A stretch of DNA of 57,392 nucleotides from Prorocentrum cordatum (lineage: Eukaryota). The DNA is taken from contig CAUYUJ010000032.1 in the NCBI GenBank assembly GCA_963575745.1, positions 62,001 to 119,392 on the forward strand. Direction: 5' to 3'. The notes beneath the pieces are model-generated. The model made no database searches and had not been told where the DNA came from. It saw only the letters and a list, made by a program, of their open reading frames with translations. This document shows positions 6,362 through 44,300 of this stretch, piece by piece. Numbering within the stretch: position 1 is the stretch's first letter; the number at the start of each line of letters is the position of its first letter. A program made the translations under genes and the position numbers.

Positions 6362-6461
6362 NNNNNNNNNNNNNNNNNNNNNNNNNNNNNNNNNNNNNNN
6401 NNNNNNNNNNNNNNNNNNNNNNNNNNNNNNNNNNNNNNNNNNNNNNNNNNNNNNNNNNNNN
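6362..6461. other. Assembly gap (100 N)
   Basis: Run of N. Confidence 1.
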
Positions 6462-9752: not shown

Positions 9753-9774
9753 CCCGTAGCTATTTTGGCTCAAA
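9753..9774 (+). other. Relic dinoflagellate spliced leader (DinoSL)
   Basis: cccgtagctattttggctcaaa vs DCCGTAGCCATTTTGGCTCAAG (19/22 match), 33 nt before the ATG at 9808. Confidence 0.88.
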
Positions 9775-9807
9775 CCTTTTTCTGGCACCGGGCCACTGGT
9801 GCCACCA

Positions 9808-22723: not shown

Positions 22724-22767
22724 GTATGTATGTATGTATGTATCTATGTATGTACACATATACATAC

Positions 22768-22829
<62 letters not shown>

Positions 22830-22940
22830 GTGTATATGTATGTGTATGTGTATGTATGTATGTATGTATGTACGTATGTACGTATGTATGTATGTATGTA
22901 TGTTTGTATGTATGTACACACACATATATATGTATATATA
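22724..22940. repeat. (TATG)n/(TA)n microsatellite
   Basis: Direct reading. Confidence 0.95.
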
Positions 22941-24280
<1,340 letters not shown>

Positions 24281-24347
<67 letters not shown>

Positions 24348-24365
24348 GTTATATATATATGTATA
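24281..24365. repeat. (TA)n microsatellite, 5' flank of the LINE
   Basis: Direct reading. Confidence 0.97.
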
Positions 24366-24387
24366 TCCGTAGCCATTTTGGCTCAAG
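24366..24387 (+). other. Perfect dinoflagellate spliced leader TCCGTAGCCATTTTGGCTCAAG
   Basis: 22/22 match to the DinoSL consensus; followed by CCAAGG rather than the GT donor of an SL RNA gene. Confidence 0.97.
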
Positions 24388-24514
24388 CCAAGGCAGAGCT
24401 CAAGGCAAACCTGAGCCTCTCACTTTTCGGTCCGCCGATAGCTTCCCCTCGCGCGGTTCATTCCGCCACAAGCCAAAATGCAATTACATATTTGTCTTCG
24501 GGCGCTTTGCTGCG

Positions 24515-25469
24515 ATGGCCAACGTCGCCGGTCGTCCCAAGCGCGGTCGCGATGCCGGTTCCGCTGGGGCCGCAGACTTGGACATCGAGGACGGCGCGGA
24601 CGACCCGTTCGAGGCTTTCCGGTCGGAGATGTTGGGCCACGTGGGCGCCGCTGTCAAAGCATTCGCCGACAAGTCCATGGCCGCCACAGTCAAGCTGGTC
24701 AAGGCGACGGAGGAGAAGTGCGAGCGTCGCGTCCAAGGCCTGGAACGCGATCCTGCTGATGCGCGCCGGGCCCAGGCTGAGATCGAACACGCGCAGCAGG
24801 AACAGCGGGGGGCGTGCCGTCGCTGTCGCGGAGGCCACCGTCCCCATCAAGGACACCCTCGACCTCTCGGAATTCAACCGGCAGGTGGACAGCGCGATCT
24901 TGCGCCTCAACGTTCCAGAGCCCACGACCAAACTCGAAATCAAGACTGCCATCCGTTCTTGGCTTCATGATGCCGATTGCGGTTCTGATGATGGGGCTGT
25001 TCTTCTTGGTCCTTGCACCGGGAAGCGTTTTACAGTGTAGTTCAAGGGGAATGCCAGTCTCGCGGAGAATCGGGCTCGCAATTCTCGCGGAATACTCAAA
25101 ACCAATGCCGGCGAAGGGAGACCTTTCCCAAACTACAAGATTATATCTGGAGCCGCGCTCTCGACCATCTACATCGATTTCGACAGGAACCCCCGTCAGC
25201 AGAACCGTGGGCGCGATGGCAAGCGTCGTCGCCAAGCTCTCCAGCACGTGTGCCCTAATAAGCACTTCGCTTGGAACAAGGTTGACGGCCTTATCAAGTT
25301 CGACGGCGTCCCTTTGGCGATGCTGGAGCCACGCAGCGACGACAGCCCGTCCCACGTGCAGTGGAATTCGCATCAACTTGATGCCGTACAAGTCGTGCGC
25401 GAGACTGTTCGGCCCGAGTTTGAGAGCCGAGCCCGCCGGCCTGCGCAGCAGGTCGCGTGGTCTGGGTAG
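24515..25469 (+). pseudogene. LINE ORF1 (coiled-coil-like N-half), frameshifted
   Basis: MANVAGRPKRGR...EKCERRVQGLE, continuing in other frames ...FNRQVDSAILRLN... to QQVAWSG*; in-frame stop at 25038-25040. Confidence 0.75.
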
Positions 25470-28400
25470 CAGGGTTGCGCCCCCGTGGAAGCTTTCGCCT
25501 ACTTCGGTCGGCTTTGTCTCCTGGAACGCTCGTGCTCTTTGCCGCCACCTCCCCCGCCGTCGTCTTGTGACAACTCGTATTATCCAAGACCTTCTTCGTT
25601 CCCCTGACCGTATTCAGCATGTTGTTGCTCTCGAAGAAATACACGGCACTCCTGAAAAGGTTTCTCGCTTACTTTTTTCCTCTTCTCGGCCGCTGCAAGA
25701 TCTTCCATTCTTTCGCGCCCAGTGACGCGGCCAGCTACAAGGCGGACGAAGGTTCTGTCGTAACGCTCGTTCCGGCTCCCCCTCCTGGCTCCGACGTCAT
25801 ATTTGCCTCTTCCTCTCCGGTCCCCGGGCGCATTTTACGTGTTACTTCTTTCTGGAGTCCCCAAACGGTGCGGTGACGGACCGTGCGGTGACCTCGAAAT
25901 CCCCCAAAACCTCACCGCACGGTCCGTCACCGCACGGTCCGTCACCGCACGGTCCGTCACCGCACGGCCCCCGTCGCCCGAGACATCCTCGGAGAAGGAC
26001 TCGAGTCCCAAAACCGTGCGGTGACCCGGAATCCCCACCGACTCACCGCACGGTGTGATCACCACCCCGTTTGGGGGCCCCCGATTCTTCCATTGGTGGT
26101 TGCACTTGGGTGCACTGGAATATCCATAACTACGGTCTGACATGCGCGGACGTCCAGCGCGCCTCGGCGATGGTCGGCCGCGACGCGGCTGTCGTTCAGG
26201 CTGATCCGCGCAACAACTTTGTGATACCTTCTGGCGTCTTCAACTTTCCCGCGCCTGGCGATTTCCGACGATCTTTCTCGGACCATGGTTCAACCGCGCT
26301 CTCTCACCACAGCCTCCCTGCGGCGGGCCCCCGACAGGCAGCTTGGCAGAGCATGCTGGACCAGTTCGCGGAGATGCACCAACCTTTCGACGCGCATTTG
26401 AACTCTACTACATCATCTACTGGCCGGTTGGATCGGCTTTACGTTGCTTCGCCCGCGTGGCTTGTCCTACAGCTCGGGCTGCACGCGAAGTTGCTGCGTG
26501 ATCCTTTCCTTTGCCATCAACAGGAGATCAGCGATCATGCCCCCGTCGCTTTCTTCTTCACTTATCGCACCCCACTTCCGCAGCATCTTCGACCTATTCC
26601 TCGGCATATTGTTGATCGTCCTCTGCTTTCTGCGAATCTCGCATTGCTCTTGGATGCCACTGACCTCGATTACTTCTCTGTGCCATTGCGCCTGGCGGAG
26701 TTCAAGCGCCTAGTCAGAGTTGCAGCGCAGATCGCCAGGAAGAAACTACTCGCCCTACCCGATGCGGGGCCTGACGCTCGTGCTTCCGCGTGCTCATCAG
26801 TCGCGCGGGCTGTCTGGCACACTGGCGCCCGGTTCGCGTTCACCTTGTTTGGGGGCTCGGAGCTTGCCCGGCAACATCTCGGCGTCGAGAGCGGCCAGGT
26901 CGTTTTGCGTGATCCCTCCGCATTCGCTTCCTTGTGCGCCGACGTCAGGTACGCAGCTTTGGAGCGACGGTTTCGCGAACCAGCTGCGCCTTCTACCCCG
27001 TTGCGGGCGAGTCGTCGCAGACGCGCCGCTTTCGACAGACTCCGAAAGATCTTGTCGCTTTTCGGCAAGCAGTGCCACATCGCCGCCATCCGCTGCGGCG
27101 ACAAGACCATCGAGGAGGAGGGCGATCAGATGAAGACGCTCGCGCAAGCATGGGGGCCGGTATTTTCTGCAGTGACCCCTGTCAACACAGATTTTGCTCG
27201 CTCGGTTGCTTCGCGTTTCTCTTCCGATTTCTCCATGGACGATTACAGTGGTCCGCCATCTTCAATAGACATTCGCAGATTTCTTCGACATGTTCGGCAT
27301 GCGGCGCCAGGTATTGATGGTATTCCCTATTGCTTGGTTGCGTGCCGGACCTCGTGCGTGGACCCTTCTCCATCAAGTGGGCGCTTGGATGTCTTCCGGC
27401 CTGCACCTCCCAATCGGTTTCAATGACGCCCTCGCCATCTTCGCCCCGAAGGGCTCCGAGGAAGACGATGACCGTGCAGTTGTTCGGGGGCCCATGTGCT
27501 TTCGACCGATCGGGCTCAAGAACTCAGACGTCAAGATCATTAGCGGATCCGTCCACTCATCCATCAAAAACGCAGTCGCGGAGAAAGCTTCCCGCCTTCA
27601 AAATGGATTTAGTACTGGGCGAAATTCTGTGAACAACATCGTGGATCTTGATGCCCATGGTAGGGCATGCGCTTTGCAGCCAACCCCTCGCTGTCCATTT
27701 CTTCTCTTCACAGACTTCGGATGCGCTTTTTCTTCATGATTCACCAGTGGCTGTTCATCGTTGCTTCGGCCAGTCGGTTGCCGCAAGGCTTGATCAACGT
27801 CATTCGGGTCGTCCACGCGTCAGTTGTTGCAGTCGGGCGCTCTGGCGCCAAGATCGCGAACTTGTTTCTCATTTTACGTGGAGTCGTCCAGGGGTGTCCT
27901 CTGGCCAGCTTCTGCTCGTCCTTGCCTTTGACCCTTTCTTGAATTGGTTTGATCATGCCATTGTTTTCGGCAGGCCGGGGTATCGTGCGCGCCTGCGCTG
28001 ACGACGTTGGCTCTGCTTTTTCATCTTTGGATGTTCTCCCTACTATGGCAAGCATCTTCAGGTTTGCCAAACTCTTGGCAGGACCCACCCTCAAGTTCCG
28101 CAAGTGCTGTCCGGTCCCAGTGCGCCCTTGGTCGGATGACCTTGCAACGATGATCCGCACTTGGATTGCAGAGCGCATTCCCAACTGGATCGACATCGCG
28201 ACTGCGCCGGCTGCAAAGTATCTTGGGGCTCATCTGGGGACCACCGTCGGCGACCTCATGTGGCGCGCGCCTGCAGAGAAGTACCGCTCCCGGGTCGCCA
28301 TGATCGCTGCCACAGGTGCCCATCCTACTCCGGCGACCATTCGTTGCAACATCCATGCTCTACCTACTTTGTGATATCTTGGTCAATTTGCCCTCCCTCC

Positions 28401-29396
28401 CAAGCGCCTCTTTCGTCGAGAGCTTTGTGCCCTTCGTCGTCTCCTTCGCATTCCCCCAATTTTTCCCTCGCGAGGACATGTTCAGTCTGCATATTTGGGG
28501 TTCGGTGTCAATCGATAGCATGTTGGTCGACCTTATCTCGCGGTTGGTCCGAGCTTCTTTAACAGCGAGTACAGGTTGGCAAGCAAATTTGGATTCTCTT
28601 CGCGCTGCAGCTGCGGAGCATCTCTCTGTGATCGACGTTGCGGCCGGAGTGTTACCCCCTCGCCATTGGGACTCTGCTCCCATAGCTTTGATCCTGCACG
28701 ATGCCTCCGAAGGACTACCCAACCACAGCATTGTGGGCAGTATCTTGCCACCCATTGTTGCCGAGGCTCGCCATTTACTGCGGGGCCGACGCCGCCTGGC
28801 TGATCCAGCCGGCTGTCCAAAGGCGCAGATACAACGCTTTATCGCAGAGAAGCTTCGGTTGGCATTGCTGTCGGATTCTATTCCGGTTCTAATTGCACGT
28901 CTTTCTCGCCCTGCGTGGCCAAGCGTACCGAAGGGGCATATTTGATGCGCATGGCGTACGTCTTCTTACGCAGTCACTTTCCCCAGCATGGTCAGCAGCG
29001 ATCCTGAAGACTTGGGCCAATGCGTGGACAACCAGTGCTCGCCTCCACCTGGATGTCGTATCGCCATGTGTTTTCGGATGTGTGGGGTGTCTGGACGAGT
29101 TAAAGTATTATTTACTCTGTGTGCCGCTTTGGTCGATGGTTCTGGCCGCTGGAACACCAGGCCCCGGAGATGCAGTTCAACGAGCGGCTGACGCCCGACC
29201 AAGTCTTCCACTGCGGCTATTTCTTCTGGCGCCTACTCACACCAACGCGCACCAGCTGGTAACGGCTTGCCTGGCTTACCACGCCGTTCGCCATCTTGAA
29301 CCCCGCGTTCAACGTGACGGGCCGGCTTTACTTCGTGAACTTTGCGCTGCTTGGCTTCAGGCTACAACTACGGCGTCCAGAACATGGAGACTCTGA
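25470..29396 (+). pseudogene. LINE ORF2: AP endonuclease, reverse transcriptase and C-terminal Cys motif; multiple frameshifts and a MITE insertion
   Basis: APE: SWNARAL, VALEEIHG, GRLDRLY, ISDHAPV; RT: APGIDGIPY, FRPIGLKNSDVKI, QNGF..GR, TDFGCAF, RGVVQGCPL, ACADD, KYLG; C-terminal CVFGC...LLC. Confidence 0.9.
25851..26084. mobile_element. MITE with TC(G/T)GG...CCCCGA termini, 5-bp TSD TTCTT and internal 15-bp TCACCGCACGGTCCG repeats
   Basis: TSD at 25846-25850 and 26085-26089; removing it restores the ORF2 frame (RVTSSIGGCTWVHWNIH). Confidence 0.9.
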
Positions 29397-29469
29397 TCCT
29401 GATATGAGCTGGCCGCGCCCGGCTCCAACGTCACACACATATATATATATCTATATATAACAGTGCGTT

Positions 29470-29591
29470 TGTTGAAGATCCTCCCCATCATGCTCTCTAC
29501 TCTTCTGTATTCTATCTTCTTTTTCTTACTCTTACTTTGCTTTGCGCAATAGCCGTTTCAGCTTCGAGGAAAAATGGATTTTTCTTCATCG
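29470..29591 (+). repeat. 5' LTR
   Basis: tgttgaag...catcg; 7 mismatches to the 3' LTR by eye. Confidence 0.95.
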
Positions 29592-30095
29592 TGGCAGCGG
29601 AGCTCTGAGAGCTCAGCTCTGCGATCCACGGCAACGAGTTCGCGGTCAGACCCGCGGGCGCCACCTTGGCGCCAGCAGCGGGCGCCTACTCCGCCATCTT
29701 GGTCGCGGTCAGCCTCGCGGCCGAGGTTGCCGCCGCCGCCGCCGCCGCCGCCTGTGCCCCTTGCGGGGCGGCCTCGGCCGCCAGCGCCGCGGGGGGAGCC
29801 CGAGGAGTTCTCGGCTTTAGGCCCAGGCTTCGGACAGGCTTCGAGGAACCTCGCGGTGCAGAGGCGGATCTTGGAACAGTTCCCCTCGCAGGGCGTGGTG
29901 CGGCCAGGGGCGGCCAGCTACGTGGCCAAGAAGAGGAGCCGCGGCCAGCGCCCTAGGGGAGAGCGTCGCACGCAGGAGGCCCTCCAGAGAAGAGCATTGA
30001 AAGGTTCTGTGCTCAGAAAGGTGGACAGCGGCGAAGAGCTCACGGAGGAGGAAAAGACCTTCTACCACAAGTGGGTGAGGGAGCTCCTTGGGTGA
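29574..30095 (+). CDS. Extra leader ORF ('ORF0', 173 aa; Pro-rich then basic), unknown function
   Basis: ATG lies inside the LTR; protein-like C-half ...LRKVDSGEELTEEEKTFYHKWVRELLG. Confidence 0.4.
   Translation: MDFSSSWQRSSESSALRSTATSSRSDPRAPPWRQQRAPTPPSWSRSASRPRLPPPPPPPPVPLAGRPRPPAPRGEPEEFSALGPGFGQASRNLAVQRRILEQFPSQGVVRPGAASYVAKKRSRGQRPRGERRTQEALQRRALKGSVLRKVDSGEELTEEEKTFYHKWVRELLG
29592..29603 (+). promoter_or_regulatory. Putative primer-binding site TGGCAGCGGAGC
   Basis: Starts with TGG immediately after the 5' LTR. Confidence 0.65.
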
Positions 30096-30248
30096 GGGAC
30101 CTCCGCAGGGGCGCCATAGAGCACTGTGAGCGCAACAACGACCCACGGGTGCGAGCCAGCGCTCTCTTTCGCGTGCTGAAGGTCGCCGCTGGGAACGACG
30201 ACGCTTACGAGCACTACTTGACGCACGGCTGGTCCACCGCTTGCGACA

Positions 30249-31964
30249 ATGGCGATGGGGGAGGTGCTGGCGAGGCTCGCAGCCATGGAGGCTCAGCTCC
30301 AAGCAGTGAGCACAGAGAACCAACAGCTGCGGGCGGACCTCGCCGCAGCAGAAGCCTTTCGGGCAGGCGCAAGCAGCGCGGCGCAGACCGAGAGGAGGGA
30401 GCCAGACGACGAGGCGCGGAGGCTGGCAGCCGGGGCCGTGGACACCCGGGTCCTGAACAAACCCAGGATGTTCAGCGGAAAAGAGTCCGACTGGGCTCTG
30501 TTCAGCCTCGTGTTCCGCGCGTACGTGGGGGCCATCTCGCCGAGGATGCAGTCCCTGCTCCGGCGCGCTGAGGACTTGCAGCAGTCCATAGAGCGCGGAG
30601 ACTTAGCCCGGGGCGACGACGCCCTGGACAAGCAGCTGTATTACATCATCACTCTGATGGTGGAGGGCAACGCGCTGCTGAAGGTCAAGAAGGTGAGCGA
30701 GGGGGAAGGGCTGAAGCTGTGGGGGCTCCTGGCGCATGACTACGAGCCGAAGCAGTTCAAGAGCCGGCGGATGGTGCAGTGCCAGGCCGTTCTCGCTGAC
30801 GTCTGGGTAGTCTTAGACAAGTTTGAAGACTTAGTCAAGGAGTACGAAAACGGGTCCGGGAAGACCGTAGACGACGAAACGAAGGCTGGTGTGATTCTCC
30901 GTGCGTTAGCCAACGGAGACGCAGACCAGCGGGATCTGTCGAAACATCTCGTTCTGAACTGCAATCGGATCGAGACGTGCGAGCAGATCAAGCAAGAGTT
31001 GCGGGAAATCGTCGGCGCGAACCGGTTTCTCGGGCGGTCTGCGGGCGGTCTGCACGCTCTTGCTAAAGGGAGCCCGAAGGGGGTCGGACGAGGACAGGCT
31101 GGCGGGAAGGGCGGCGACGGTAAGTTGCAGCTTGCCATCAAGTTTTCGGGCGACTGTTGGGCTTGCGGCAAAACCGGCCACAGGGCCAGCGAGTGCCGGA
31201 GCAGCCCGGCAGCCAAGGCCAAGGCGAAACCAGCTGGGAAGGCAAAACAGAAGGCGGCAGCCAAGCGTTTTGCTGGGAACTTTTCGGGAAACTGCGACTA
31301 CTGCGGCAAACCAGGCCACAAGGCCGCAGACTGCCACAAGAAGCGCGCGGACGTCGCAGGAGCAACTAGGACAGGCACTGGGGAGCCGAGCAAGAAACGC
31401 ACTCGAGCAGAGATTTCCCATCTCGAACAGCAGCTGGCGGCGCTTTCGCTGCAGGTGCAGGGCCTTTCTGGGTCGTCATCCGGGGCGGCGGGGCTTTCGG
31501 AGGTGGGGAGTCTTGGGATCTCGGCAATCGAGGCTAGCGAGGTATCTGCTGTGTCGTACTCGCGGTCAGACCCGCGGGTTACGATTGGTCTCGGCAGCGG
31601 CGCGGAGATAACCGTCTGGCCCCCAGAGCTGGTCCCAGAAGTCCCAACCAAGGACTCCCCAGAGTCCCGCCGCGGCGTGAAGTACTACGGCCCTGGGGGC
31701 ACCGTCGCGCCGTCCTTGCCGAACCTCGGGAAGAGGGTGTACGAGTTAGACATTGGTGGTGTTCGCAGGCATGCTAATGTTCACATCGTCCCAGTCCGCA
31801 AACCTTTGTTAGCACTGTGTGATTTAGAAGATCACGGTCACGATGTTTTCTTCGTCGACGGTCGTCGGTGGGCTCGTCGCAGGGAGTCGGGCGAAGTCTT
31901 GGAGATGCATCGTAGAGGGGGCAGGTATGAGCTCGACGCAAGAGTCATCCTGCCGTCAAACTGA
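30249..31964 (+). CDS. gag: Copia Gag with two CCHC zinc knuckles plus aspartic protease (catalytic Asp replaced by Gly)
   Basis: KPRMFSGKESDW; CWACGKTGHRASEC; CDYCGKPGHKAADC; IGLGSGA in place of LDSGA; VRKPLLAL. Confidence 0.9.
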   Translation: MAMGEVLARLAAMEAQLQAVSTENQQLRADLAAAEAFRAGASSAAQTERREPDDEARRLAAGAVDTRVLNKPRMFSGKESDWALFSLVFRAYVGAISPRMQSLLRRAEDLQQSIERGDLARGDDALDKQLYYIITLMVEGNALLKVKKVSEGEGLKLWGLLAHDYEPKQFKSRRMVQCQAVLADVWVVLDKFEDLVKEYENGSGKTVDDETKAGVILRALANGDADQRDLSKHLVLNCNRIETCEQIKQELREIVGANRFLGRSAGGLHALAKGSPKGVGRGQAGGKGGDGKLQLAIKFSGDCWACGKTGHRASECRSSPAAKAKAKPAGKAKQKAAAKRFAGNFSGNCDYCGKPGHKAADCHKKRADVAGATRTGTGEPSKKRTRAEISHLEQQLAALSLQVQGLSGSSSGAAGLSEVGSLGISAIEASEVSAVSYSRSDPRVTIGLGSGAEITVWPPELVPEVPTKDSPESRRGVKYYGPGGTVAPSLPNLGKRVYELDIGGVRRHANVHIVPVRKPLLALCDLEDHGHDVFFVDGRRWARRRESGEVLEMHRRGGRYELDARVILPSN

Positions 31965-31990
31965 GACGGGCTGGCCTGGCCGTAAGTCCC

Positions 31991-33355
31991 GTGGAGGAGG
32001 CAGGCTCAGGTGCTCCAACGGTCGCGGGTAGCTCCGCGGCCCCTCCGGCAGCACTAGCAGCGGGGCCTCATGTTTCACAGTCAGTTTCACCAGGTGGCTC
32101 GGCGGACGGCCCCGCGAGCGCACCTGTGCCGGCCGCAGGGCCGAGGGCGCCAGCGGGCAGCCCCGCGGGCCAAGGAGGGGATTGCGGCGCTCATCTCCAG
32201 TCTCACATGGCCAACGCTGGAGGCGGGGTCATTCGAGCTCCCCCCTCCCAAAGTCTTCCTTCGGCGGAGGAGATTGCAAGGCGTAATGTTGATCATTGTC
32301 CGTGGCAGAGTTGGTGTAGATCGTGCGTGGCTGGTTGTGGGAAGGCAGACAGTCATTTTAGGCGGGAGAGCGACGATCTGAAAATGCCTTGTGTCTCTTG
32401 TGATTACTGTTTCATGGGGGAGTCGGTGGAGGAGGAGAGGATGTGTGATCGATGTTTATTTATAATTGTACATAAGTTTTTTCCAGGATAGGTGGTTGAC
32501 GTCACATGTTGTGAGGCGCAAAGGAGTAGATGAATGGGCCGTCAAAGTCACGGCGCACGACCTGGAGCAGAGTGGTCTGCAGCACTTCATCTACAAGTCA
32601 GACGGCGAAAACGCCATCAAGGTGCTCAAGACCGCAGCCGTCGAAGAACTTCGATCCAAATGTGGGGAGGCCATCACAGTTAAGATGGAGGAGAGTGGGG
32701 CCAGGGAGTCTCAACAAAATGGTGTGGTGGAGAGGGCCATCTGGGAGGTAGAGTCCAAAACCCGGACTCTGGTCCATGCGGCCCAGGAGTTCCATGGAGT
32801 AAAACTTCCTTTAACTCATCCTGTCCGTGTTTGGCAGTGGAGTACGCCTCACAGGTCATCGACAGAGGTCAAAAGGCTTTGAAAGATGGCCGCACCGCGT
32901 ACGAGCTGAGGAAAGGCAGACCGTACCGTCGCAAACTTCCAGCCTTTGCAGAAGCAGTGATGTTTCTGAGAGTAGCAGAGAAGCGGCAGAGGCGCAAATT
33001 CGAAGACCGATGGGAGACGGGAGTCTACCTTGGACTGGTAGAGCGCTCAAACATGGTCTTGATCGGGACGCCACAGGGTGTCCGGAAGGTGAACTGCGTC
33101 AAGAGATTGCCGCCGGTCCAGGCTAAAGACCCGGAGCTGGTGAAGGCCATCAGGGGGTATCCGTGGAGCCACTCCGAGGGTGTCGACGCGGAGGAGCCGG
33201 GGGGCGCGCCCGTGATGGCGGCGACGGAACCAGTCGTGCCTGAGTCGGAATTACCACCACACCTGCCACCGCCACCAGCGGCACCTTGGGTCCCGAGGCG
33301 CGTATACATTTTCAGCTTTTGGTCACAAGCCGAGGGCGCACACACAAGAGTGTAG
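31991..33355 (+). pseudogene. Copia integrase, frameshifted near 32480 and 32830
   Basis: HCPWQSWCRSC; DDE core CDYCF / KSDGE / QNGVVERA; TAYELRKGR; RWETGVYLG. Confidence 0.88.
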
Positions 33356-33911
33356 GAAAAGGATCGAAGACGCCATGGCTCAAGATACCGAGCTTGGCGT
33401 CCGTCTGGAGGAGGCGGAGCCGCACAGGGGGGCAGCAGGCGTCCCGGGGGCGCGAGCAGCGCCAGGGGAAACCCTGGAGCCTGGAGAGGTTTTGGGGCCA
33501 GACAGCACAACGGAGGAGCCTTCGCGGGAAGCCCCGCGGACGGCGCATAGGCAGGAGCAGGGGGAACCTTCGCGGGAAGCACCGCGGACAGCACCAAGGG
33601 AGGAGCAGGGAGGTATTGATTCGCAGCAGCCGAAGCGGCTCATCAATATGCCTGCTAGTAGACCGTCGCGGGGAGCGCCGCGGCTGTCTGCACCAGGCGC
33701 AGGAGGGGAGCCGGCAGCAGCGGCAGCCGATTCTGGGGTGACAGCTTCGGCTACAGCAGGGCCGGCTGCACCGCTAAGGCCTGGCAGCGTCGAGGCTGCG
33801 CTGGCCGGGTCAGAGCCAGTGTTGGTTCGAGACGGCGACAAAGGATAATCGCTTGGTAACGCAGACCCCAGCGCCGCGGATAGGCCAGTTCCTGGTCTAG
33901 ACGAGGACGAC

Positions 33912-36422
33912 ATGGATCTTGGTAGTATCCAGGCGAATCTTCGGCAGATGGGCGCGGCAGTTGGCCCGTCTATCAAGTCCGTGTGCTCGGTCGCGAGGGG
34001 CGGTCCGATTCCGGACAGCAGCTGGGAGGCAGCTGCGGGCGAGGTGTTCTGCAAGAGCAGGTTCACCACGCAGGTGGGCAAGTTCGGCCTTCACCCGGGC
34101 TACGTGCTTGACTTCACCGCAGGGTGGGACTTGGAGGTCCCAGGGCAACAGCAGAAGGCCGACGAAATGCAGGAGCAGATCCGGCCATGCCTGCTAGTGG
34201 GGGGCACTGACGGCCCTCCCTGGAGCCGGCAGCGCAGGGGCGACGCTGGCGCAGGCGCGCGGGGCGCGCGCGGGGCACGCAGCAGGCAGCAACTCCTGGC
34301 GTGTTGTCCGCTGTGCAGGAAGCAAATCGACGCTGCTCGATACATGCTACACGAGCACCGTGGCGGCGCGGCGTCTCTGCAGGAGCCGTGCGCGCAGGGG
34401 GTGTTAGAGCAGCCAGATGTGTTCTGGGTGCGCACTGGCGAGCGTGGGATGGGGCAGGCCATCGCCACCAAAGGAGGCGGGCGCGAGCTGGTGGCGCAGG
34501 GGGCCGGTTGGCTCACCAACAGCAGGTGTATCGCCGAGGAGCTTGCGACGTGCAAGTTTTGGAACAGAACGGGTTCCAAGGCTGCAGGGACAGGGGGGTG
34601 CGCGCCCGCGCTGGTATGTGCGGTGCTGCGTGGCCTCCGGCGGCAACTCCAGGAAGACGGGAAGTTGTCGTTGTCCTCCCTCGAGCCGGGGGTCGCAGGC
34701 CACGACCCCACAGAGTATCCAGAGGAAGACCTTGCGAAGTTTTACGACGATGTCTCTGGGAAGCTCTTACCAACGCCGCTGGTACGGAAAGCGAGAGTCG
34801 CCGAGTTGGATTTTCTACGCGGTTTCCCTGTGTACGAAAAGGTGCCAGCAGCACGGGCGAAAGGCAAGAACATGGTTTCTGTGCGTTGGTGTGATGTCAA
34901 CAAAGGTGATGATGATAATTTGGAGGTTCGCTCCCGGCTGGTCGGCAGGGAGTACAAGTGGCAAGACCCATTCATGCAAGGCACGTTTGCCGCGACGCCA
35001 CCACTAGAGAGCCTTAAATATCTGTTCCATTTCATGACAACCACGAGGCGGGTGCGAGGCGCCCCGGTTCGTTTGAAGATGTTGGTGATGGATGTGAGCA
35101 GAGCTCATTTCCATGCGCCGTGTGTGCGGGAGATGTACATCCGCCTCCCAGAGGAGGATGCTACCCCAGGGATGGTCGGAAAGCTTCTTCGCACCATTTA
35201 CGGCGCGCGCGACGCAGCGAACCAATGGGACAGTTTCTTTAACGACATCATCACAAAGCTGGGCTACGACGTTGGCGTGTCAAACCCATGTTTGTACAGA
35301 CACAGGAACAAACTGCCAATAGGGTGGAGGCACGGAGACGACCTTGTGTTCATAGGTGAAGCAGACCACATGTACAGCTTGTTTGACGGAATCGGCAAGC
35401 ACATGATCCTTAAGAAGAGAGGCGTGCTTGGTTTTGAGGATGGTGACGACACGCACATCACCATTCTGAACCGTTTGGTTGATTTCTGCACCAAGGACGG
35501 TGTGCCGACAGTCACTTACGAGCCTGATCCTCGACACGTGGATCTTCTAGTCGACCAGCTTGGACTGACCGGCAGCCGGGTCAAAGCAGTGGGCGCGCCA
35601 GGCGAAAAGCGCGGCGATTACCACTCGGAAGAGCCGCTCGCGGATAGCTCCGTGAGTTTGTACAGGTCATGTACTATGCGTATAGCGTACCTTGCGGCAG
35701 ATCTGCCGCGCCTACAGTTTTCTGCAAATCGACTGGCCCGTGGGATGAGTAAGCCCACTGTGGGCCACTGGAACCGGCTCAAGCGCGCGGTGCGCTACCT
35801 GAAGGGCCACCCCCGGTGGGTTCAGCAGTTCCAGATGCAGGAGCCTGTGGGGTATGTTGACGTAAGGACAGATTCTGATTGGGCGTCAGACCCAACAGAC
35901 CGGAAGTCTGTGAGCTGCACGGTAGTGATGATTGGCAATCACTGCCTACGATGTTCGACTGCTACACAGACGAGTCCAGCTCTGTCCTCAGGAGAGGCGG
36001 AATTTGTAGCGAACGTCAAAGGAGGGAGCCATTCTCTTGGCATGCAGTCCATGGCCCGGGACTTCGGCGACGAGCTGCGGATCCGTCTGCGGACAGACAG
36101 CACAGCTTCCAAGGGGATCGCTTCCCGGATCGGTCTCGGGAAGGTGCGACATTTGGACGCGGCATTTTTGTGGATACAGCGCCAGGTAGGAAAGGGGAAG
36201 ATCCAGATGCACAAAGTAGACGGTAAAACTAACTTAGCTGATCTTGGGACCAAGGACGTCGAGGAGGCTTTGATAGTTCGTTTTATGGGAGGCATGGGAT
36301 TCAAGGAGGAGGCCGGACGTCATCCAAAAACGTTGAAGGTTTCGCACGGCTTGGGCGGCTACGGGGAGGAGGACCTTCTAGCTCAGACGGATGATGTGGG
36401 AAACGAGAAGGAGCTCATCTAA
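33912..36422 (+). CDS. pol: Pol C-terminal part: degenerate DNMT-like domain, reverse transcriptase and RNase H
   Basis: RT: VRWCDVNKG, RSRLVGRE, MDVSRAHF, IYGARDA, HGDDL; RH: TDSDWA, SSGEAEF, TDSTA, KVRHLD; same frame as 33375-33848, separated by one TAA. Confidence 0.92.
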   Translation: MDLGSIQANLRQMGAAVGPSIKSVCSVARGGPIPDSSWEAAAGEVFCKSRFTTQVGKFGLHPGYVLDFTAGWDLEVPGQQQKADEMQEQIRPCLLVGGTDGPPWSRQRRGDAGAGARGARGARSRQQLLACCPLCRKQIDAARYMLHEHRGGAASLQEPCAQGVLEQPDVFWVRTGERGMGQAIATKGGGRELVAQGAGWLTNSRCIAEELATCKFWNRTGSKAAGTGGCAPALVCAVLRGLRRQLQEDGKLSLSSLEPGVAGHDPTEYPEEDLAKFYDDVSGKLLPTPLVRKARVAELDFLRGFPVYEKVPAARAKGKNMVSVRWCDVNKGDDDNLEVRSRLVGREYKWQDPFMQGTFAATPPLESLKYLFHFMTTTRRVRGAPVRLKMLVMDVSRAHFHAPCVREMYIRLPEEDATPGMVGKLLRTIYGARDAANQWDSFFNDIITKLGYDVGVSNPCLYRHRNKLPIGWRHGDDLVFIGEADHMYSLFDGIGKHMILKKRGVLGFEDGDDTHITILNRLVDFCTKDGVPTVTYEPDPRHVDLLVDQLGLTGSRVKAVGAPGEKRGDYHSEEPLADSSVSLYRSCTMRIAYLAADLPRLQFSANRLARGMSKPTVGHWNRLKRAVRYLKGHPRWVQQFQMQEPVGYVDVRTDSDWASDPTDRKSVSCTVVMIGNHCLRCSTATQTSPALSSGEAEFVANVKGGSHSLGMQSMARDFGDELRIRLRTDSTASKGIASRIGLGKVRHLDAAFLWIQRQVGKGKIQMHKVDGKTNLADLGTKDVEEALIVRFMGGMGFKEEAGRHPKTLKVSHGLGGYGEEDLLAQTDDVGNEKELI

Positions 36423-36558
36423 GTAATAGCTCGTGTATGTTCGTGGTGTGCAGTAAGAACGGTCTCGCGGCGAGCCCCGTGGGAGGTTCTGAACCACAGA
36501 GATGATTAGGAGCGTATAGAACATGTCACTGGTAGTGTACAGTCACCAGTTTCATGTT

Positions 36559-36566
36559 AGGAGGGG
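36559..36566 (+). promoter_or_regulatory. Polypurine tract
   Basis: AGGAGGGG directly before the 3' LTR. Confidence 0.8.
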
Positions 36567-36688
36567 TGTTGAAGTTACTCCCCATCATGCTCTCTACTCT
36601 TCTGTATTCTATCTTCTCTCTCTTACTCTCACTTTGCTTTGCGCAATAGCCGTTTCAGCTTCGAGGAAAAATGGATTTTTCTCCATCA
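36567..36688 (+). repeat. 3' LTR
   Basis: tgttgaag...catca. Confidence 0.95.
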
Positions 36689-37809
36689 GCGTTGGCGCTT
36701 AACGCCAAACACATTGGCCCTTCAAGTTTTGCATGCAGGCGGAAGTGCTGGCGGAAGGACAGGAAGGCAAAGCATACAAAATGGCGATCACTCCTCGTGG
36801 TCTTGTCCGACATCGTCCTCATAATAATGCCATTCGCTACCCTTCCCTGACGTGTCCTCTTCCCCTTCTACGTTCTGCGGTCCACGAAGGAAGTGGTGAC
36901 CGCCCCCAGTTGTGATCCCCCTCGGTGCTGCCCGATCCTCCTACTCCCTCCTCCTCCTCGTCTTCCTCCTCCTCGTCTTCCTCCTCCTCCTCGTCTTCCT
37001 CCTTCTCCTACCCACGTGCCTGGAGGGAACGTCGCGAAACTTGGATTCGGACATATTTGGTGGAAGTGCTGGACGAGGGCGCCAATGCGGGGTCGTACGT
37101 CGAAGGCCTCTTCGATGTGTTTGGGTCTGTGGGGAGGCGTCTCGGGGTCGTCGCGGAAACTATGTTGCTGGTTTGGGAGATAACTTGCGGCCCCCTTTGG
37201 TTGATTTTCGGTCTTGTTGGGGGCCTCGTGAACGCTGGTTGTGGCGTTTGGGCGCCTGTTGGCAGTTTCGTGGGTCCTTTCGGGATGGAGGGCTCGCGCC
37301 TGGTGGCGGTCTGAAGGTCCGTGTTGGGGCTTTCTTCAGGGATCGTGGGGGCATCTCGCCCGTCTTGGAGCCTTCTCGGGCCGTCTTGGGTTGTCCTGGG
37401 GCGATGTTGGGGGCCTTTTGGGCCTTCCTGGGGCGTCGGTGGCACGAAAAAACGATAATGCCAAAATACCGCAAAAAAACCATAGGAAACGCACAGGTTT
37501 TGCATTTCGAGGCCCACTTGGGGGTTGCTACCGCTGGCTCGTTTGCACGACGTGGCAGGGACCCCCAAAAGCACGGAGGTCTTATGGGACCTTCGGCGCT
37601 GGCGCCCAGGAGCTCCAAAAGGTAGGCAAATATAGGAGAGGGAATTCACACGTGTGTATATCGAGGACGCCGGCGGCGCATCACCGGCCGCTCCCTGGGA
37701 GTTTGCCGAAGTGGTGCGCAGCATCGAAAGTCGTGATGCGGCGCGTATGCCAGCTATCAAATGGCCGTCGGCCCATCCCGCGACCGCGCTTGGGTTTTGG
37801 GTCGGAGTC

Positions 37810-38420
37810 CTCATGGACGCTTCTTGGGTCTCTCGAGAGGGCTCTGGGGGGCCTCTGCGGGGGAGTTTAGGGGCCTCTTGGGGGCCTCCTGGGGGCTTCT
37901 TGGGAGCCTCTTGGGGCCCTCTTGGGGGCTCTTGGGGGCCTCTTGGGGCCTCTTGGTGGCTTCCTGGGGGCCTCTTAGAGCCTCCTGGGGGCCTCCTGGC
38001 ACCGAGAGCTCGGAATGTTCATTCGGGTTCCCCTTCTGTGCGCCCTCTTGGGGCCGTCCTGGGGCCCCTCTTGGGCCATCCCGGGGGCGTCTTCGGCCGT
38101 CTTGGGGCCCTCTTGGGCTGTCTTAGAGCCCTCTTGGACGCTTGTTTGGCCGTCGTGGGGCGATCTTGGGGGCCTCTTGGGCCGTCTTGGAGCGTGGGTA
38201 AGCCGAAATGGCGAGAACGTGAAAATCTTTCAAAAAAACATGTTTTTTGCGTCTTGGGGCTCTCTTAGGGGTGCTCTTCGAGGCCTCTTGGGCCGTCTTG
38301 GAGGCGTCTTGGGCCTTCTGGAGGCCATCTTGGGCTTCTTGGAGCGATCCGGAACCGTTGGGAGGCTCTCGCGGACTGCTCCGGACTCTCTTGGACCGGC
38401 TTGGGGCGCCCTGAGGCCGT
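37810..38420. repeat. Degenerate ~11-bp (GGGCCTCTTGG)n array (inverted relative at 52755-52855)
   Basis: Direct reading. Confidence 0.8.
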
Positions 38421-38689
38421 CCCCGGGCCGTTCGAGACCTGAAGGTCGGGGGGGGGGGGCCGGCGGCAGAATGGGGCACCCTCGGAGGGAATTTCAGGGA
38501 GGTTTTTGGCCAGGCACTGGCGAATAGGGCCAAAGACTGTGCCAAGCACTCTGTCAGAGAGGGCTCGCACGGCCCACACCGCAGGGCGGGAGCGGCCGGA
38601 TCCGTAGGGGCTTCGCTCCTTGCCGCGGGCCCCCTCTCTCGGAGAATGGGCAATGCAAAGCGAAATCATGAGGCCTTGGCGCGAATATT

Positions 38690-39060
38690 CTGTAATGTTC
38701 AAGGGTTTCTGGCTTCGGACACGCGATTATCGCGTAATTTACGAAGGTTTATGGCTTCGGGGTCGCAGATATTGCGCCACTTGCGGGTGTTTCTGGTTTC
38801 GGAGACGCAAGTATAAAGTAATTTACAAGGGTTTATGGCTTCGGGGACGCGCATATTCTGTGATTTGCGAGCGTTTGTGGCCTTGGGGACGCAAGTATTG
38901 TATATTTTACGAGGGTTTATGGGTACGGGGATACGAATATGGAGTATTTTGGGAGGGTTTATGGCTTCGGGACTATTGCGTAATTCACGAAGGCTTATGG
39001 CCTCAGGGACGCGAACCTTGCGTAATTTACGAGGGTTTATGGCCTCGGGGGCGCGAATAT
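38690..39060. repeat. 42-bp minisatellite
   Basis: ttacgagggtttatggcttcggggacgc...; period checked between 38823 and 38907. Confidence 0.85.
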
Positions 39061-39181
39061 AATGTATTTCCCAACCATCCTGTGGTGTTGGGTCCTCGTT
39101 TTGACGAGACGGTCCCCGCGTTCCTCTTCTCCTCTCCTCCTCCCCCGCCTCCCCCTCCTCCCCTCCCTCCTCCTTCTTCCA

Positions 39182-40175
39182 TGCGTTTCACCCACCCAGC
39201 ACAGCGTTTCGTGGCCCCACAGGGAGCTCCACCGAAGCCCCCGGTGGGACCGCCCGCATGCGTCCGCCACCACCCAGCACAGCCCTTGCTCCTTGCGTTT
39301 TACCCGCCCAGTACAGCGTTTCGTGGCCCCATAGGGAGCTCCACGGAAGGTCCCAGTGGCACCGCCCGCATGCGTCCGCCACCACCCAATACGGCCCTTG
39401 CTCCCTGCGTTTCACCCACCCAGTACAGCGTTTCGTGGCCCCATAGGGGGCTCCACCGAAGGTTCCACTGGCACCGCCCGCATGCGTCCGCCACCACCCA
39501 GCACAGCCGTTGCTCCTTGCGTTTCACCCACCCAGTACAGCGTTTCGTGGCCCCATAAGGAGCTCCACCGAAGCCCCCAGTGGGACCGCCCGCATGCGTC
39601 CGCCACCAACCAGCGCAGCCCTTGCTCCCTGCGTTTCACCCACCCAGTACAGCGTTTCGTAGCCCCGTGGGGAGCTCCACGGAAGGTTCCAGTGGCACCG
39701 CCCGCATGCGTCCGCCACCACCCAACACGGCCTTTGCTCCCAGTGGCACCGCCCGCGTGCGTCCGCCACCACCCAACACGGCCCTTGCTCTCTGCGCTTC
39801 GCCCACCCAGTACAGCGTTTCGTGGCCCCATAAGGGGGCTCCACCGAAGGTCCTAGTGGCACCGCCCGCATGCGTCCGCCACCATCCAGCACAGCCCTTG
39901 CTCCCTGCGTTTCACCCACCCAGTACAGCGTTTCGTGACCCCATAGGGAGCTCCACGGAAGGTCCCAGTGGCACCGCCCGCATGCGTCCGCCACCACCCA
40001 GTACAGCCATTTCTCCCTTCGTTTCACCCACCCAGTACAGCGTTTCGTGGACCCATAGGGGGCTCCACCGAAGGTGCCAGTGGCACCGCCCGCATGCGTC
40101 CGCCACCACCCAACACGGCCCTTGCTCCCTGCGTTTCACCCACCCAGTATAGCTTTTCGTGGCCCCATAGGGAGC
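39182..40175. repeat. 112-bp minisatellite, about 9 copies; its leader (39068-39180) and first unit recur at 57210-57392
   Basis: Units start at 39182, 39294, 39406 and onward. Confidence 0.93.
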
Positions 40176-40420
40176 GCCATCGAAGAAGATATTCAGAAGT
40201 GCGGTACTCACAACTGCATATGGTTGGGTCCTTCGCCAGGCTAATTCTTATGTGTCTCAAGCCTAATTTCGCCCCCCCCCCCCCCCCCCAGAAATTCTGA
40301 GAACCCCACCAGGAGACGCTAACCAGGCCACTTTTCGGCTCCCCCCCTCGCGCGGTCCATCAAGGAACAGTAAGCAGCAAGAAGCAGAACTGCAACAGTG
40401 GAAACTGGAAGCTGGAACTG

Positions 40421-41313
40421 GTGCAGGGAACAGCAAACCCTGGTCCTACAGCCTGGTGGCCCCACAGGGGGGGTTCTCAAGCGACAGCCCCCAAGGCCAC
40501 CAACCAAGTTCGCGCTCAACTCGAACAAGTTGCAGCGGTGCTTACTCGTTCTGTACCCGAGGCTCCAGAGGCTCCTGTTGTGACGTCTCCCTCGCAGTCG
40601 CCTCCTACCGACACCCGGAGCGCCAAGGCGAACATTCAGTCCCTCGATGCGGCCCTCCATGCCCTGCCGGAGGGTCCGGCCTTTGCCTCGTCGAGGGCAG
40701 CTCTCCAGGACAGCATCGACATGCAGAGAAACACCATCCGCGACTCCAAGCCGCTCGGGGCGCGGCTGGACGAGGCTCGCGCGGCATCGGCCCGAGCGCA
40801 GGCTCGACGTGCCGAGGCCGCCAAGGCCCTCGAGCTTGCCCAGGCCGCCATCGTGGCCTCGGAGATGGAGATCGCCAGCTTCACGGCCAACGTCGAGGAG
40901 CTGGAGAAGTCGACCAAGTCCGCGGGCGACGTGGCCGCAGACGTCGCCATGGACAGCCCCTCCGGCCCCAAGGACGTGCCTGCCTCCATCGGCACCCAGC
41001 TCCAGTCGCGGGTTGCCACCCTGCAGACCGACTCCCACGTGAACCCACTCCACACCGAGGCTGCCGGCAAGCGGGTGACTGCGCTCCTCCAGGGTTTCCA
41101 GCAGAAGATCGAGCTTGCTCAGGCCGCCCGCGGCGCTTCCGTGCCACGGCGGCTCCAGGGCAACCACCACGCAAGGACGACGTCTCCGACGAGGAGTTCA
41201 TCGAGGTCCCCTGGCTTCGCCACAGCACCAAGAAGCCGCCCCTCAAGCAGTCCACGCTCTTCGGCCATGGTTTCACGGCCGTCCGCAAGAGCGTGGCCAA
41301 GCCAAAAAACTAA
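40421..41313 (+). pseudogene. LINE ORF1 (coiled coil); start uncertain, frameshift near 41165
   Basis: KPLGARLDEARAASARAQARRAEAAKALELAQAA; ends ...RKSVAKPKN* with TAA at 41311-41313. Confidence 0.7.
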
Positions 41314-44300
41314 TGAAATCGGGGGCCGACGAGGCAGGCTCGAGCAGCCCGGCCACCCGATTGCATGCCTCTGTCAACGTTGCCACCCTCTATCCACGTG
41401 AACATACCCTGGCCTCTACACGTGGTTCCTTCGCCCTCATGCTGGGCAAGGTCCAGATGCTCGAGCTCGACTTCCACCGCTCCTCCCTGGACGTGGTCTG
41501 TATTCAGGAGGGCCGTGCTCCGCAGTGTGATGTCCACGATGGCGTCCACTACCGCATGTATGCTGGCTGTGCGGACTCAGACGGCCAGTACGGGTGCCAG
41601 GTGTGGATTGCCACCAGTCTCACCTTCCACCCGAAGAGCGTGCGCCACGTATCACCCCGCCTGATGACCGTCGCGGGGTATTCCGTGACATTGCAGCGCG
41701 GCCTCGTGGTGGTCAGCGCCCACGCTCCCACTGAGGCCAGCACCGCCCGGGTCAAAGACGACTTCTGGGACTCCCTCACCGCGGTTGTGCTCAACCTGCG
41801 CTCGCAGTTCCCAGCCTACGTGGTCCTGGCCGGACTGGACGCCAACGGGCGCGTCCAAGGCCACGGCGACGCGATCGGGCCGTGCGAGCCCGAACCGTTC
41901 ACTGACAACGGCAACCGCTTGCTGAGCCGCCTCGTTGCGTGCTCCCTGATGGCCGCCAATACGTTCTACGAGGCCGGCTACACTTGGCGCTCCAAGCACG
42001 GCACCACCGCCAGGATCGATTACACCCTCCTCGACATCGACCTCTTTTCCAGCTTGGTGGAGTCCCGTGTGCTCCCAGAGACGGTCCTCTCCTACACCCC
42101 GACTGAAGACCACCGCATGGTGATGAGCGTCGTCGAGGTCAGTGGTCACGACGGCGTCTATGCGGACCGGCCTCGGCGGGCCCCGCGAATCAACAAAGCG
42201 AAATGCTTCGACGCGGAGTGTTGCCGCCGTTTCCAGGACGCCACTGACCCTGAGCAGTACGCGACCGAACTCACCGACTACGTCCATGCATCTGCCCTCA
42301 AGTCGTTCGGCTCCTTCAAAGACACCCCGCGTAAGCCCTGGATATCACCACCTACGTGGCGCATTCTCCGTGGTCTAGCCCCGCTGCGCCGCGCTGCCAG
42401 CGTTGCTGGGGCACGCGCCGTTCAGGCGCTCCTGCATGCGGCCATGTACGCCTGGGCCAGCCTCGTCCCCAGCGCATCTGTCCCCGGACGGGTCCGTGGC
42501 CGACGCGGCGGCCTCGGGTGGCACTCTGGTGCGCGGTGCGGCGAGGATCGTCGCCGGCTCCACGTCCTCCGCCTCACCTCCACGATGGCGTGGCGTGCGG
42601 CCGCGGCGATCCGGCGCATGATCAAGCCCGTTATCGCTGAAGATCGCCGCGTGTTCATCGAGGCCAAGACCCTTGAAGCGCGCGACGCCCAGGCCAGAGG
42701 TGACACGCGCACCACGTCTGCCATCCTCCGTGCCCTCGGCGGTCGCTTCACCACTCAGCAGCCGCCGCACGTTCTACGTAAAGACGGCACCCTCACCACG
42801 TCCGAAGGGGAACGGCAGCAGAGATGGCTTGAGCACTTCACCGATGTGTTCCACGGCACGCCCATGACACTGGACGAGCTGCGCTCTATCCCTGTCGCCC
42901 CGCCGATGGCTGATCATCAAGTTCGTATCGGCCCTGCTCGCGTCGAAGGCGCCCTTGGCCGCTTGAAGAGCAACCGCGGGACAGGTCGGGACGGCATCTC
43001 AGCAGAAGTGCTGCGCGCTGGTGGCGGCGCTATGGCGGTTAAGCTCTCGGAGCTGTACCAGTGCGTAGTCGACTCCGAGGTCTGGCCAACGGCTTGGCCT
43101 GGCAGTCGTGTCGTCGGCGTCCACAAGAGGAAGGGCCCCAGGAATGACTGTGACGAGTACCGTGGCATCCACCTGGATAGCCACCTGGGCAAGGTCCTCG
43201 AGGATATCCTCAACGAGGACGTGAAGGAGCCGTACGAGGCCGGCATGCCGCCGTCCCAGTACGGCGCCGTCTCCAAGCGTGGGACCGACTTTGTGTCGCG
43301 CGTCCTCTTTACGTGGATTTGTGCAAGGCGTTCGATAGGGCGATCCGTGAACTGGTCCTCGGCATCCCTCACGACTGCGCCTACCCGTCCACTTACTTGG
43401 CGGGCCTGGGTCTTCGCGCCCATCAGGTGGAGTGGATCGTTGAGTTCATCGCCGTCCACGTGCCCCTCATGCAGCAGTGGGGTATTCCCGAAAAGATCGT
43501 GCGCCTTCTCAAGAATCTGCACTCCAAGAGTTGGCTTAGCTACGGCGACGTGGACACTGCGGTCAGCGTGCGCCTGGGGGGTAAACAAGGCTGCAAGTAC
43601 GGCAGTACGATTTTCAACGGATCGTACTCGGTCGGCCTGCTGCTCCTGAGGGACGCCCTGCTCAAGGCTGGCGCGACGTTGCGCATCCACGACCCTGGCC
43701 CTGACTTCGTCTCTCCTGGAGGCGTCCCTGCTGATCGCCGCCCGCCAGCGGCTGAAGGGGGGGCAGGATCTGTCCTCCCTCCCTCGCTCGACTCCGCCGT
43801 CCCCGTCATCGACGTGGCGTTCGTGGACGACGAGTGTTTGCTGCTTTGCGCTAAGACTCCCGCCATCCTAGATCGGAACATCGACGTCCTCCTCGAGTCG
43901 TTGTGTAGCGTATTCCGTATTCGACCTGCTGGGCTTCGTAATCAACTGGAAGCCAGGGAAGACGGAATGCAGCCTCATCTACAAGGGCCACAACGCAGCC
44001 GCCCATTACGCCGCCAGGAGAATTGGACCCCAGGGCGCTCTCCCGGTTGAAGGTACCTGGCTCCTCCGGCCACGTCACCGTGGTGCACCAATACATGCAC
44101 TTGGGGGGCATCGCCGAGGTCGGAGGCAACAACGTTCACGAAACTCGGGCCCGGGCGGTGTCGGCAGCAGAGGCGTGCAGCCCGCTGGCCGTGCGAGTTT
44201 ACGGCAACGAGGGTTACCCGCTCCTGGATCTTTGGAGCCTCATGTAGTCCCTGGTGTTCTCCAGGCTGTTCTTCAAAATGCACATCCGGGTGCTGTCCTT

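Follow-up and report, generated by a model that had tools for sequence, protein, structure and literature searches.

The window analysed here is a 57,392-nt stretch of the Prorocentrum cordatum genome (assembly GCA_963575745.1, contig CAUYUJ010000032.1, forward-strand positions 62,001-119,392), and all coordinates below count from its first base. Its central feature is a full-length but dead copy of a long interspersed nuclear element (LINE) that carries the exon of the dinoflagellate spliced leader (SL), DinoSL, at its 5' boundary. A (TA)n-like microsatellite at 24281-24365, beginning from about 24279, lies directly 5' of the DinoSL copy at 24366-24387 on the plus strand (TCCGTAGCCATTTTGGCTCAAG). 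The 21-nt DinoSL core, CCGTAGCCATTTTGGCTCAAG, is present at 24367-24387 with 0 mismatches. When the window was shuffled 100 times with its dinucleotides preserved, no shuffle contained a match to the core with up to three mismatches allowed. T24366 is compatible with the variable first base (D) of the 22-nt DinoSL and is equally possible as the final T of the TA tract; 21 nt of leader are thus certain and 22 nt are consistent. The SL directly adjoins the (TA)n tract on one side and the leader of the first open reading frame (ORF1) on the other, and the bases that follow it from 24388 are CCAAGG, with no GT. The 5' leader spans 24388-24514 on the plus strand (127 nt). Its first ATG, at 24478, is in a different frame from the ORF1 ATG at 24515. 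The sequence from SL through leader to ORF1 is continuous and free of N, and no remnant of another gene was seen between the SL and ORF1. With up to five mismatches allowed, the whole window has two SL-like sites on the plus strand and none on the minus strand.

ORF1 (24515-25469, plus strand, approximately 317 codons) starts at the ATG at 24515, ends at 25467-25469 and is broken. Its frame shifts once, near a run of six G at 24805-24810 (region 24805-24815), and it is interrupted by an in-frame TAG at 25038-25040, a CAG-to-TAG change at a codon that encodes Q in both of its relatives. These relatives, P0151 and P0152, are 46% and 44% identical to ORF1 over 100% of a 217-residue query, and the start of ORF1 (MA followed by a basic/acidic N-terminus) resembles that of P0152. 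On these alignments we take ORF1 to be a genuine protein family. It matched no Pfam family, its C-terminal piece had no relative among proteins of 250-2000 residues, and searching its N-terminus and P0152 against JGI metagenome contigs returned pattern matches and no relative. The AlphaFold model of P0152, which was built from three sequences and is of low confidence (mean predicted local distance difference test score 45.8), shows a long helix at the N-terminus and, after it, a beta-alpha-beta-beta-alpha unit.

ORF2 (25459-29396, plus strand, stop codon at 29394-29396) encodes an apurinic/apyrimidinic endonuclease (APE), a reverse transcriptase (RT) and a Cys-rich C-terminus. The endonuclease motifs VSWNARAL (25516), ALEEIHG (25627) and SDHAPV (26530) are present, as is WNIHNYG (WN.HN), and the RT is recognizable from APGIDGIPY (27304), FRPIGLKN (27500), FTDFGCAF (27707), VQGCPLAS (27886) and ACADD (27991). 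Because these motifs are spread over three frames, we count seven frameshifts in ORF2. A 455-residue piece of ORF2 (26059-27423), searched against 1.84 billion protein representatives, has 657 relatives at E≤1e-3; the same piece found no relative in the viral contigs of IMG/VR. In tblastn comparisons the relatives align over 25459-29315, and they do so beginning at their first residues and stopping close to their ends (for example, residues 95-1125 of 1192 in P0002), which indicates that ORF2 is full length. Among eight long relatives, Pfam placed RVT_1 above its cut-off in all eight and Exo_endo_phos in seven, two of those below the cut-off; the eighth has RVT_1 only. Relatives with Exo_endo_phos align to 25459-26560, the region of the APE-type endonuclease. 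The window's own broken ORF2 pieces gave a single Pfam match, a sub-threshold RVT_1 (E 0.0094 on 27269-27736), and none to Exo_endo_phos. A Cys-rich motif lies at 29067-29132 near the C-terminus, and its C-x3-C-x7-H-x3-C pattern is kept in the 26 long ORF2 relatives. Among solved structures, the best relatives of P0009 were human L1 ORF2p (E 3.6e-7 to 1.3e-6), a weak match, and then R2 proteins. The domains of the ORF2 relatives and the two relatives of ORF1 bear out the identification of a LINE in the first-pass annotation of this DNA, in which the broken state of the copy was not mentioned.

We compared the window with contigs from two sequencing runs, X1 (which we guess to be DNA) and X2 (which we guess to be RNA); such contigs cannot show where transcripts start or end. 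At least 99% identity to the window was found for 49 of 590 X1 contigs and 78 of 891 X2 contigs. Two further runs, X3 and X5, contributed no contig. One X1 contig corresponds to 27654-28055 (403 nt) with no differing letter and one gap, so most of the frameshifts in that region are real and at most one stems from the assembly or a strain difference.

The 3' untranslated end of the LINE is 35 nt long (29397-29431, plus strand) and has neither poly(A) nor AATAAA. Self-BLAST found no repeat shared by the two ends of the element apart from the TA tracts. It runs into a (CA)4(TA)n tract at 29432-29459, which is either the tail of the element or the other half of a (TA)n target, and beyond this come ACAGTGCGTT and the 5' long terminal repeat (LTR) of a copia-like element; the SL exon lies whole on the 5' side. 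The (TA)n tract, the 127-nt leader, ORF1, the APE-RT ORF2 and the (TA)n-like tail thus all lie where the first pass had put them, as do the CCAAGG junction and the DinoSL itself, of which the first of the 22 bases is consistent rather than certain. The upstream microsatellite also forms the outer flank of a palindrome (22942-24280), with perfectly (100%) complementary arms at 23209-23393 and 24046-24230 and further arms that are 96-97% complementary, around a (CCAGAA)n-type core at approximately 23720-23860. Both outer flanks of the palindrome are TA/TATG microsatellites, the other one at 22725-22941, and for this reason the TA tract is probably older than the LINE insertion.

An SL next to a LINE could mark an SL RNA gene or an element inserted into one. 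The first possibility was rejected because CC, not GT, follows the SL exon. No Rfam SL RNA match was found in 23500-30000 at E≤1, in a database that may have no dinoflagellate SL RNA model. In scans of public DNA for the exact SL, we collected 139 loci, made up of 119 stretches of viral contigs (IMG/VR, 80 of them with flanks) and 20 genome contigs. Of 28 exact sites there with a local GC content of at least 0.35, eight continue with GT, mostly GTAC, and we take junctions of this form as typical of SL RNA genes. We likewise rejected an SL-gene insertion, since there is no SL-gene remainder 3' of the element and its endonuclease is of the APE type. On these same grounds, the first pass was right to exclude both an SL RNA gene and an element inserted into such a gene.

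With the exon standing alone at the exact 5' boundary, and with neither an SL gene nor an SL-gene insertion in place, the SL most likely arrived on an RNA template, a reading that the arrangement supports well. Because the SL fits exactly between the TA tract and the leader, and because a TA-type repeat also lies at the 3' end, SL and element look like one inserted unit. We therefore favor, with a probability of roughly 0.72, the reading that this is an L1-like LINE copy (ORF1 plus APE-RT-CCHC) made from the element's own mRNA, which bore the trans-spliced 22-nt leader of the host. A source copy would have been transcribed, probably within a longer sense transcript, and trans-splicing would have joined DinoSL to it at an AG acceptor immediately before CCAAGG. 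The LINE endonuclease would then have nicked the (TA)n tract, and the RT would have copied the RNA from its 3' end to its very 5' end, leader included. We infer all three processes, transcription, trans-splicing and target-primed reverse transcription. The first pass had proposed the same route of SL capping followed by copying to the 5' end; the exon-only SL at an exact boundary speaks for it, and the steps themselves are read from one dead copy. As the copy is dead, what it documents is an event of the past, not a cycle in operation.

Several observations weigh against this reading. A poly(A) tail would be expected from a processed mRNA and is missing, unless the 3' end of this family primes on TA repeats. 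A target-site duplication (TSD) is unreadable inside a microsatellite. Only one copy was seen, self-BLAST having returned no second LINE copy in the window, and the nearest full-length ORF2 among 90% protein clusters is 45% identical, with no intact close relative known. Word depth in the first bin of the element (24330-24501) is 0 in X1 and 0.89 in X2, compared to 1.6-9 in the next six bins; few copies therefore reach the LINE 5' end, and this single copy could be the only one with the leader. Additionally, a preprint on two Symbiodinium genomes (10.1101/783902) reports that the functions enriched in genes carrying DinoSL relics and those enriched in RT genes do not overlap.

The low coverage of the leader bears on a different origin, in which the RT jumped from the LINE RNA, at its 5' end or at an internal position, to some other SL-capped mRNA, so that the SL and part of the leader would be foreign. 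Template switching of this kind by RT produces U6-L1 chimeras. A leader nearly uncovered by X1 and X2 contigs that do cover the rest of the LINE is what such a chimera might give. However, ORF1 is complete, and its ATG and first residues match the start of P0152. A switch at the natural 5' end would still depend on a second RNA with an SL cap and would append foreign sequence not recognizable as such, while a switch to the SL RNA itself would have brought along an intron, which is absent. We consider a template-switch chimera unlikely.

Alternatively, the machinery of another retroelement may have acted in trans on the LINE mRNA and produced a processed pseudogene. The window also contains a copia-like element with RVT_2, and in the available text of one review the enzyme behind dinoflagellate retroposition is called unknown (PMC6050394). 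Against this, the TA-repeat ends look like those left by a LINE and not by an LTR element. LINE proteins also usually act on their own RNA, a cis preference that argues against copying in trans, and we judge this origin improbable. Slightly less credible is a chance neighborhood, in which the LINE or its 5' part landed beside an older SL relic or a rearrangement brought the two together. Mobile elements crowd this region (the palindrome, the LINE and an element nested within it, and the copia-like element with its GCGTT TSD), and a further SL relic does exist in the window. Yet with two SL-like sites in 57 kb, a base-exact junction with a complete element is improbable, and no other gene has left a remnant between SL and ORF1. 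An assembly artefact joining an SL-bearing read to a LINE is highly improbable, for although a microsatellite lies at the junction and the one-gap X1 contig (27654-28055) may point to an indel error or variant, that same contig has no differing letter over 403 nt, other contigs are at least 99% alike, and the SL-leader-ORF1 stretch is free of N, the only N run in the window being the 100-N assembly gap at 6362-6461.

The first-pass annotation had suggested that the 17 nt directly behind the SL (24388-24404, plus strand, CCA...GCTCAAG) are an older, decayed SL from a previous cycle. The ends of this stretch match SL positions 8-10 and 16-22. Between them, TTTTG (5 nt) is replaced by AGGCAGA (7 nt), a difference confined to one block with no scattered decay. 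An anchored alignment score as high or higher occurs at 1234 of 114506 window positions, true SLs included, giving an empirical p of approximately 0.011 that is suggestive only. Compared with the tandem truncated relic CCATTTTGGCTCAAG that can stand behind a full SL, the 17 nt agree only at their two ends. Some SL-tagged contigs of other origin (L123, L130 and L135) also run on with CCA... or CCATT... after the SL. We regard an older SL relic here as plausible, not established. Elsewhere, at a contig end (L131), two perfect copies of CCATTTTGGCTCAAG stand in tandem behind a full DinoSL, a textbook case of repeated retroposition.

How does this LINE relate to known systems? Relic DinoSL sequences upstream of intron-free genes have been described as the mark of retroposed trans-spliced mRNAs (PMC12014239, PMC7245778, PMC5585692 and PMC6050394, in their available portions). 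As in those retrogenes, a genome-encoded, intron-less DinoSL lies directly upstream of an intron-free coding unit. What differs is that the tagged RNA would be the element's own bicistronic message (ORF1 plus APE-RT), inserted with TA-repeat ends. Among SL-tagged retrogenes, Song et al. 2017 (PMC5585692; compare PMC12014239) found an enrichment of the Gene Ontology (GO) term 'RNA-dependent DNA replication', and in the available text of these sources RT genes appear through this GO enrichment only, never as the 5' ends of LINEs. The enzyme behind the retrogenes of dinoflagellates is called unknown there, and one review favors LTR elements (PMC5585692 and PMC6050394, available portions). De Mendoza et al. 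2018 described LINEs in Symbiodinium in a main text with 0 occurrences of 'spliced leader', and we found no explicit description of a LINE with a DinoSL 5' end in the literature, supplements not covered. The locus is best explained, in our analysis, as the known DinoSL retrocopy process acting on the message of a retrotransposon of the kind that may be able to drive that process.

The domain order, the best solved match (L1 ORF2p) and the CCHC-like motif liken this element to L1-type LINEs, as may the long helix and beta-alpha-beta-beta-alpha unit predicted for the relative of its ORF1 by the low-confidence model. It differs from them in having no poly(A), and in having a host leader at its 5' end in place of an untranslated region with an internal promoter. 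Its ORF1 has no Pfam ORF1 match, and the L1-likeness comes from ORF2 motifs and the weak match to L1 ORF2p. Other LINEs live physically beside SL sequence: SLACS, CZAR and CRE of trypanosomatids and NeSL-1 of nematodes insert inside SL RNA genes by means of a restriction-like endonuclease. Those elements have SL-gene sequence on both sides, whereas the LINE in the window has the exon on its 5' side only, no intron or gene remainder, and an APE. L1Tc/ingi elements, like the LINE described here, reside in organisms with SL trans-spliced mRNAs, and the available text of PMC1874656 and PMC8190864 describes how the internal promoter Pr77 of trypanosomatid L1Tc drives abundant unspliced transcripts, the opposite solution to carrying an SL. 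Viral sequences headed by an SL, such as transcripts of dinoflagellate-infecting RNA viruses (dinoRNAVs), endogenous viral elements (EVEs) and cassettes of giant-virus promoter plus DinoSL from lakes, are comparable in that a selfish element has the host leader at its 5' end. These are viruses, however, with an SL that stands behind a viral promoter or was gained on integration, while the SL in the window heads a cellular non-LTR copy. PMC10235124, in its available portion, reports a dinoRNAV assembly with dinoSL at its 5' end, notes SL relics in the neighborhood of EVEs, and proposes LINEs as mediators of integration.

An APE-RT LINE bearing the same SL tag as the retrogenes would mean that some mRNA encoding a LINE had acquired the SL cap and that a LINE-type insertion then copied it all the way to the 5' end. 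The element is thus a concrete candidate for an engine of dinoflagellate retroposition, and one that can be tested genome-wide. SL capping may also be a third answer to the problem of LINE 5' ends under SL trans-splicing, besides internal promoters such as Pr77 and insertion into SL genes. More tentatively, and with the odds against it, we hypothesize from this one dead copy that a promoter-less lineage of dinoflagellate LINEs renews itself in this way. Read-through transcription plus host SL trans-splicing would give each copy an exact, capped 5' end, the AG within the SL would serve as the next acceptor, and the same machinery, seeking TA tracts and microsatellites, would make the SL-tagged retrogenes that account for about a fifth of dinoflagellate genes. 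If true, such a lineage would put a name to the long-unknown engine of dinoflagellate retroposition.

Nested in the endonuclease region of ORF2 is an element resembling a miniature inverted-repeat transposable element (MITE) at 25859-26076 (218 bp). Its ends are inverted over approximately 18 nt (CCCCAAACGG...), and a short tandem repeat lies inside it. The bin at 25878-26049 reaches a word depth of 6285 in X1 and 26966 in X2, against single or double figures elsewhere, and two X2 contigs from other LINE copies skip the MITE altogether, jumping from 25847 to 26087 and from 25850 to 26093. Given this depth and these jumps, the MITE-like element is a very abundant small element that landed after the LINE had inserted. 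The LINE itself is multicopy, as contigs of X1 and X2 range from less than 90% to more than 99% alike.

A second SL relic accompanies a gene farther upstream in the window (9754-12063, plus strand). The relic CCGTAGCTATTTTGGCTCAAA at 9754-9774 has two mismatches and lies 35 nt before an ATG at 9809, within an intron-free frame (9760-12060) that contains Glyco_tran_WbsX (E 6e-78). We classify this locus as an ordinary SL-tagged retrogene, and its relic argues that SL-tagged retroposition operates in the P. cordatum genome. On the other side of the LINE, a copia-like LTR retrotransposon (29470-36689, plus strand) starts 10 nt beyond the LINE TA tail; its LTRs of approximately 121 nt are 95% alike, it has a 5-bp TSD (GCGTT), and it contains zf-CCHC (ORF 30222-31961) and RVT_2 (ORF 33849-36419). 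The recognizable coding features near the LINE, that is the WbsX gene and the copia-like element, all lie on the plus strand, as does the LINE. Three tandem-repeat arrays with periods of approximately 11, 42 and 112 nt (37366-40244) separate the copia-like element from an 856-codon open frame at 41079-43646 on the plus strand. This frame has a sub-threshold Exo_endo_phos match (E 6.8e-4), and we did not use it as a second LINE because that match stands alone, with no RT in neighboring frames. No SL-like motif with up to five mismatches was found upstream of this frame or of the copia-like element.

The 139 SL-bearing loci in other public DNA yielded no relative of the LINE when searched by tblastn with 28 proteins, and their 3071 ORFs did not match a hidden Markov model built from the 26 long ORF2 relatives. 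Pfam searches of 20 long ORFs downstream of GC-rich SL sites returned neither an RT nor an endonuclease. Four GC-rich loci (L120, L123, L133 and L135), which are filed under bacterial metagenome-assembled genomes (MAGs) and are probably dinoflagellate DNA binned by mistake, have a microsatellite directly before the SL, namely (GT)n-like, (TCA)n, (GA)n or (ACAG)n, and these junctions resemble the (TA)n-SL junction of the window. Under a fixed rule, a microsatellite precedes the SL at 3 of the 17 non-GT junctions with enough upstream sequence, compared to 156 of 17537 positions (0.9%) in the same loci; when applied to the window, the rule qualifies 4.9% of positions. The IMG/VR stretches (L001-L119, mostly from giant-virus MAG (GVMAG) bins, GC 0.15-0.30) hold many exact DinoSL copies right behind conserved AT-rich motifs, such as ...AAATATAAATTTTA, ...TTTTACTAAACCA and ...TAGTA. 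Unique sequence follows each of these copies, some of which are arranged in 50-nt tandem units, and they look like leaders encoded behind viral promoters. Finally, one 5319-nt IMG/VR contig (L067) has DinoSL at its start followed by a 788-codon frame with a viral RdRP_1 domain (E 4.9e-7), and it resembles the SL-headed dinoRNAV assembly described in the available portion of PMC10235124.

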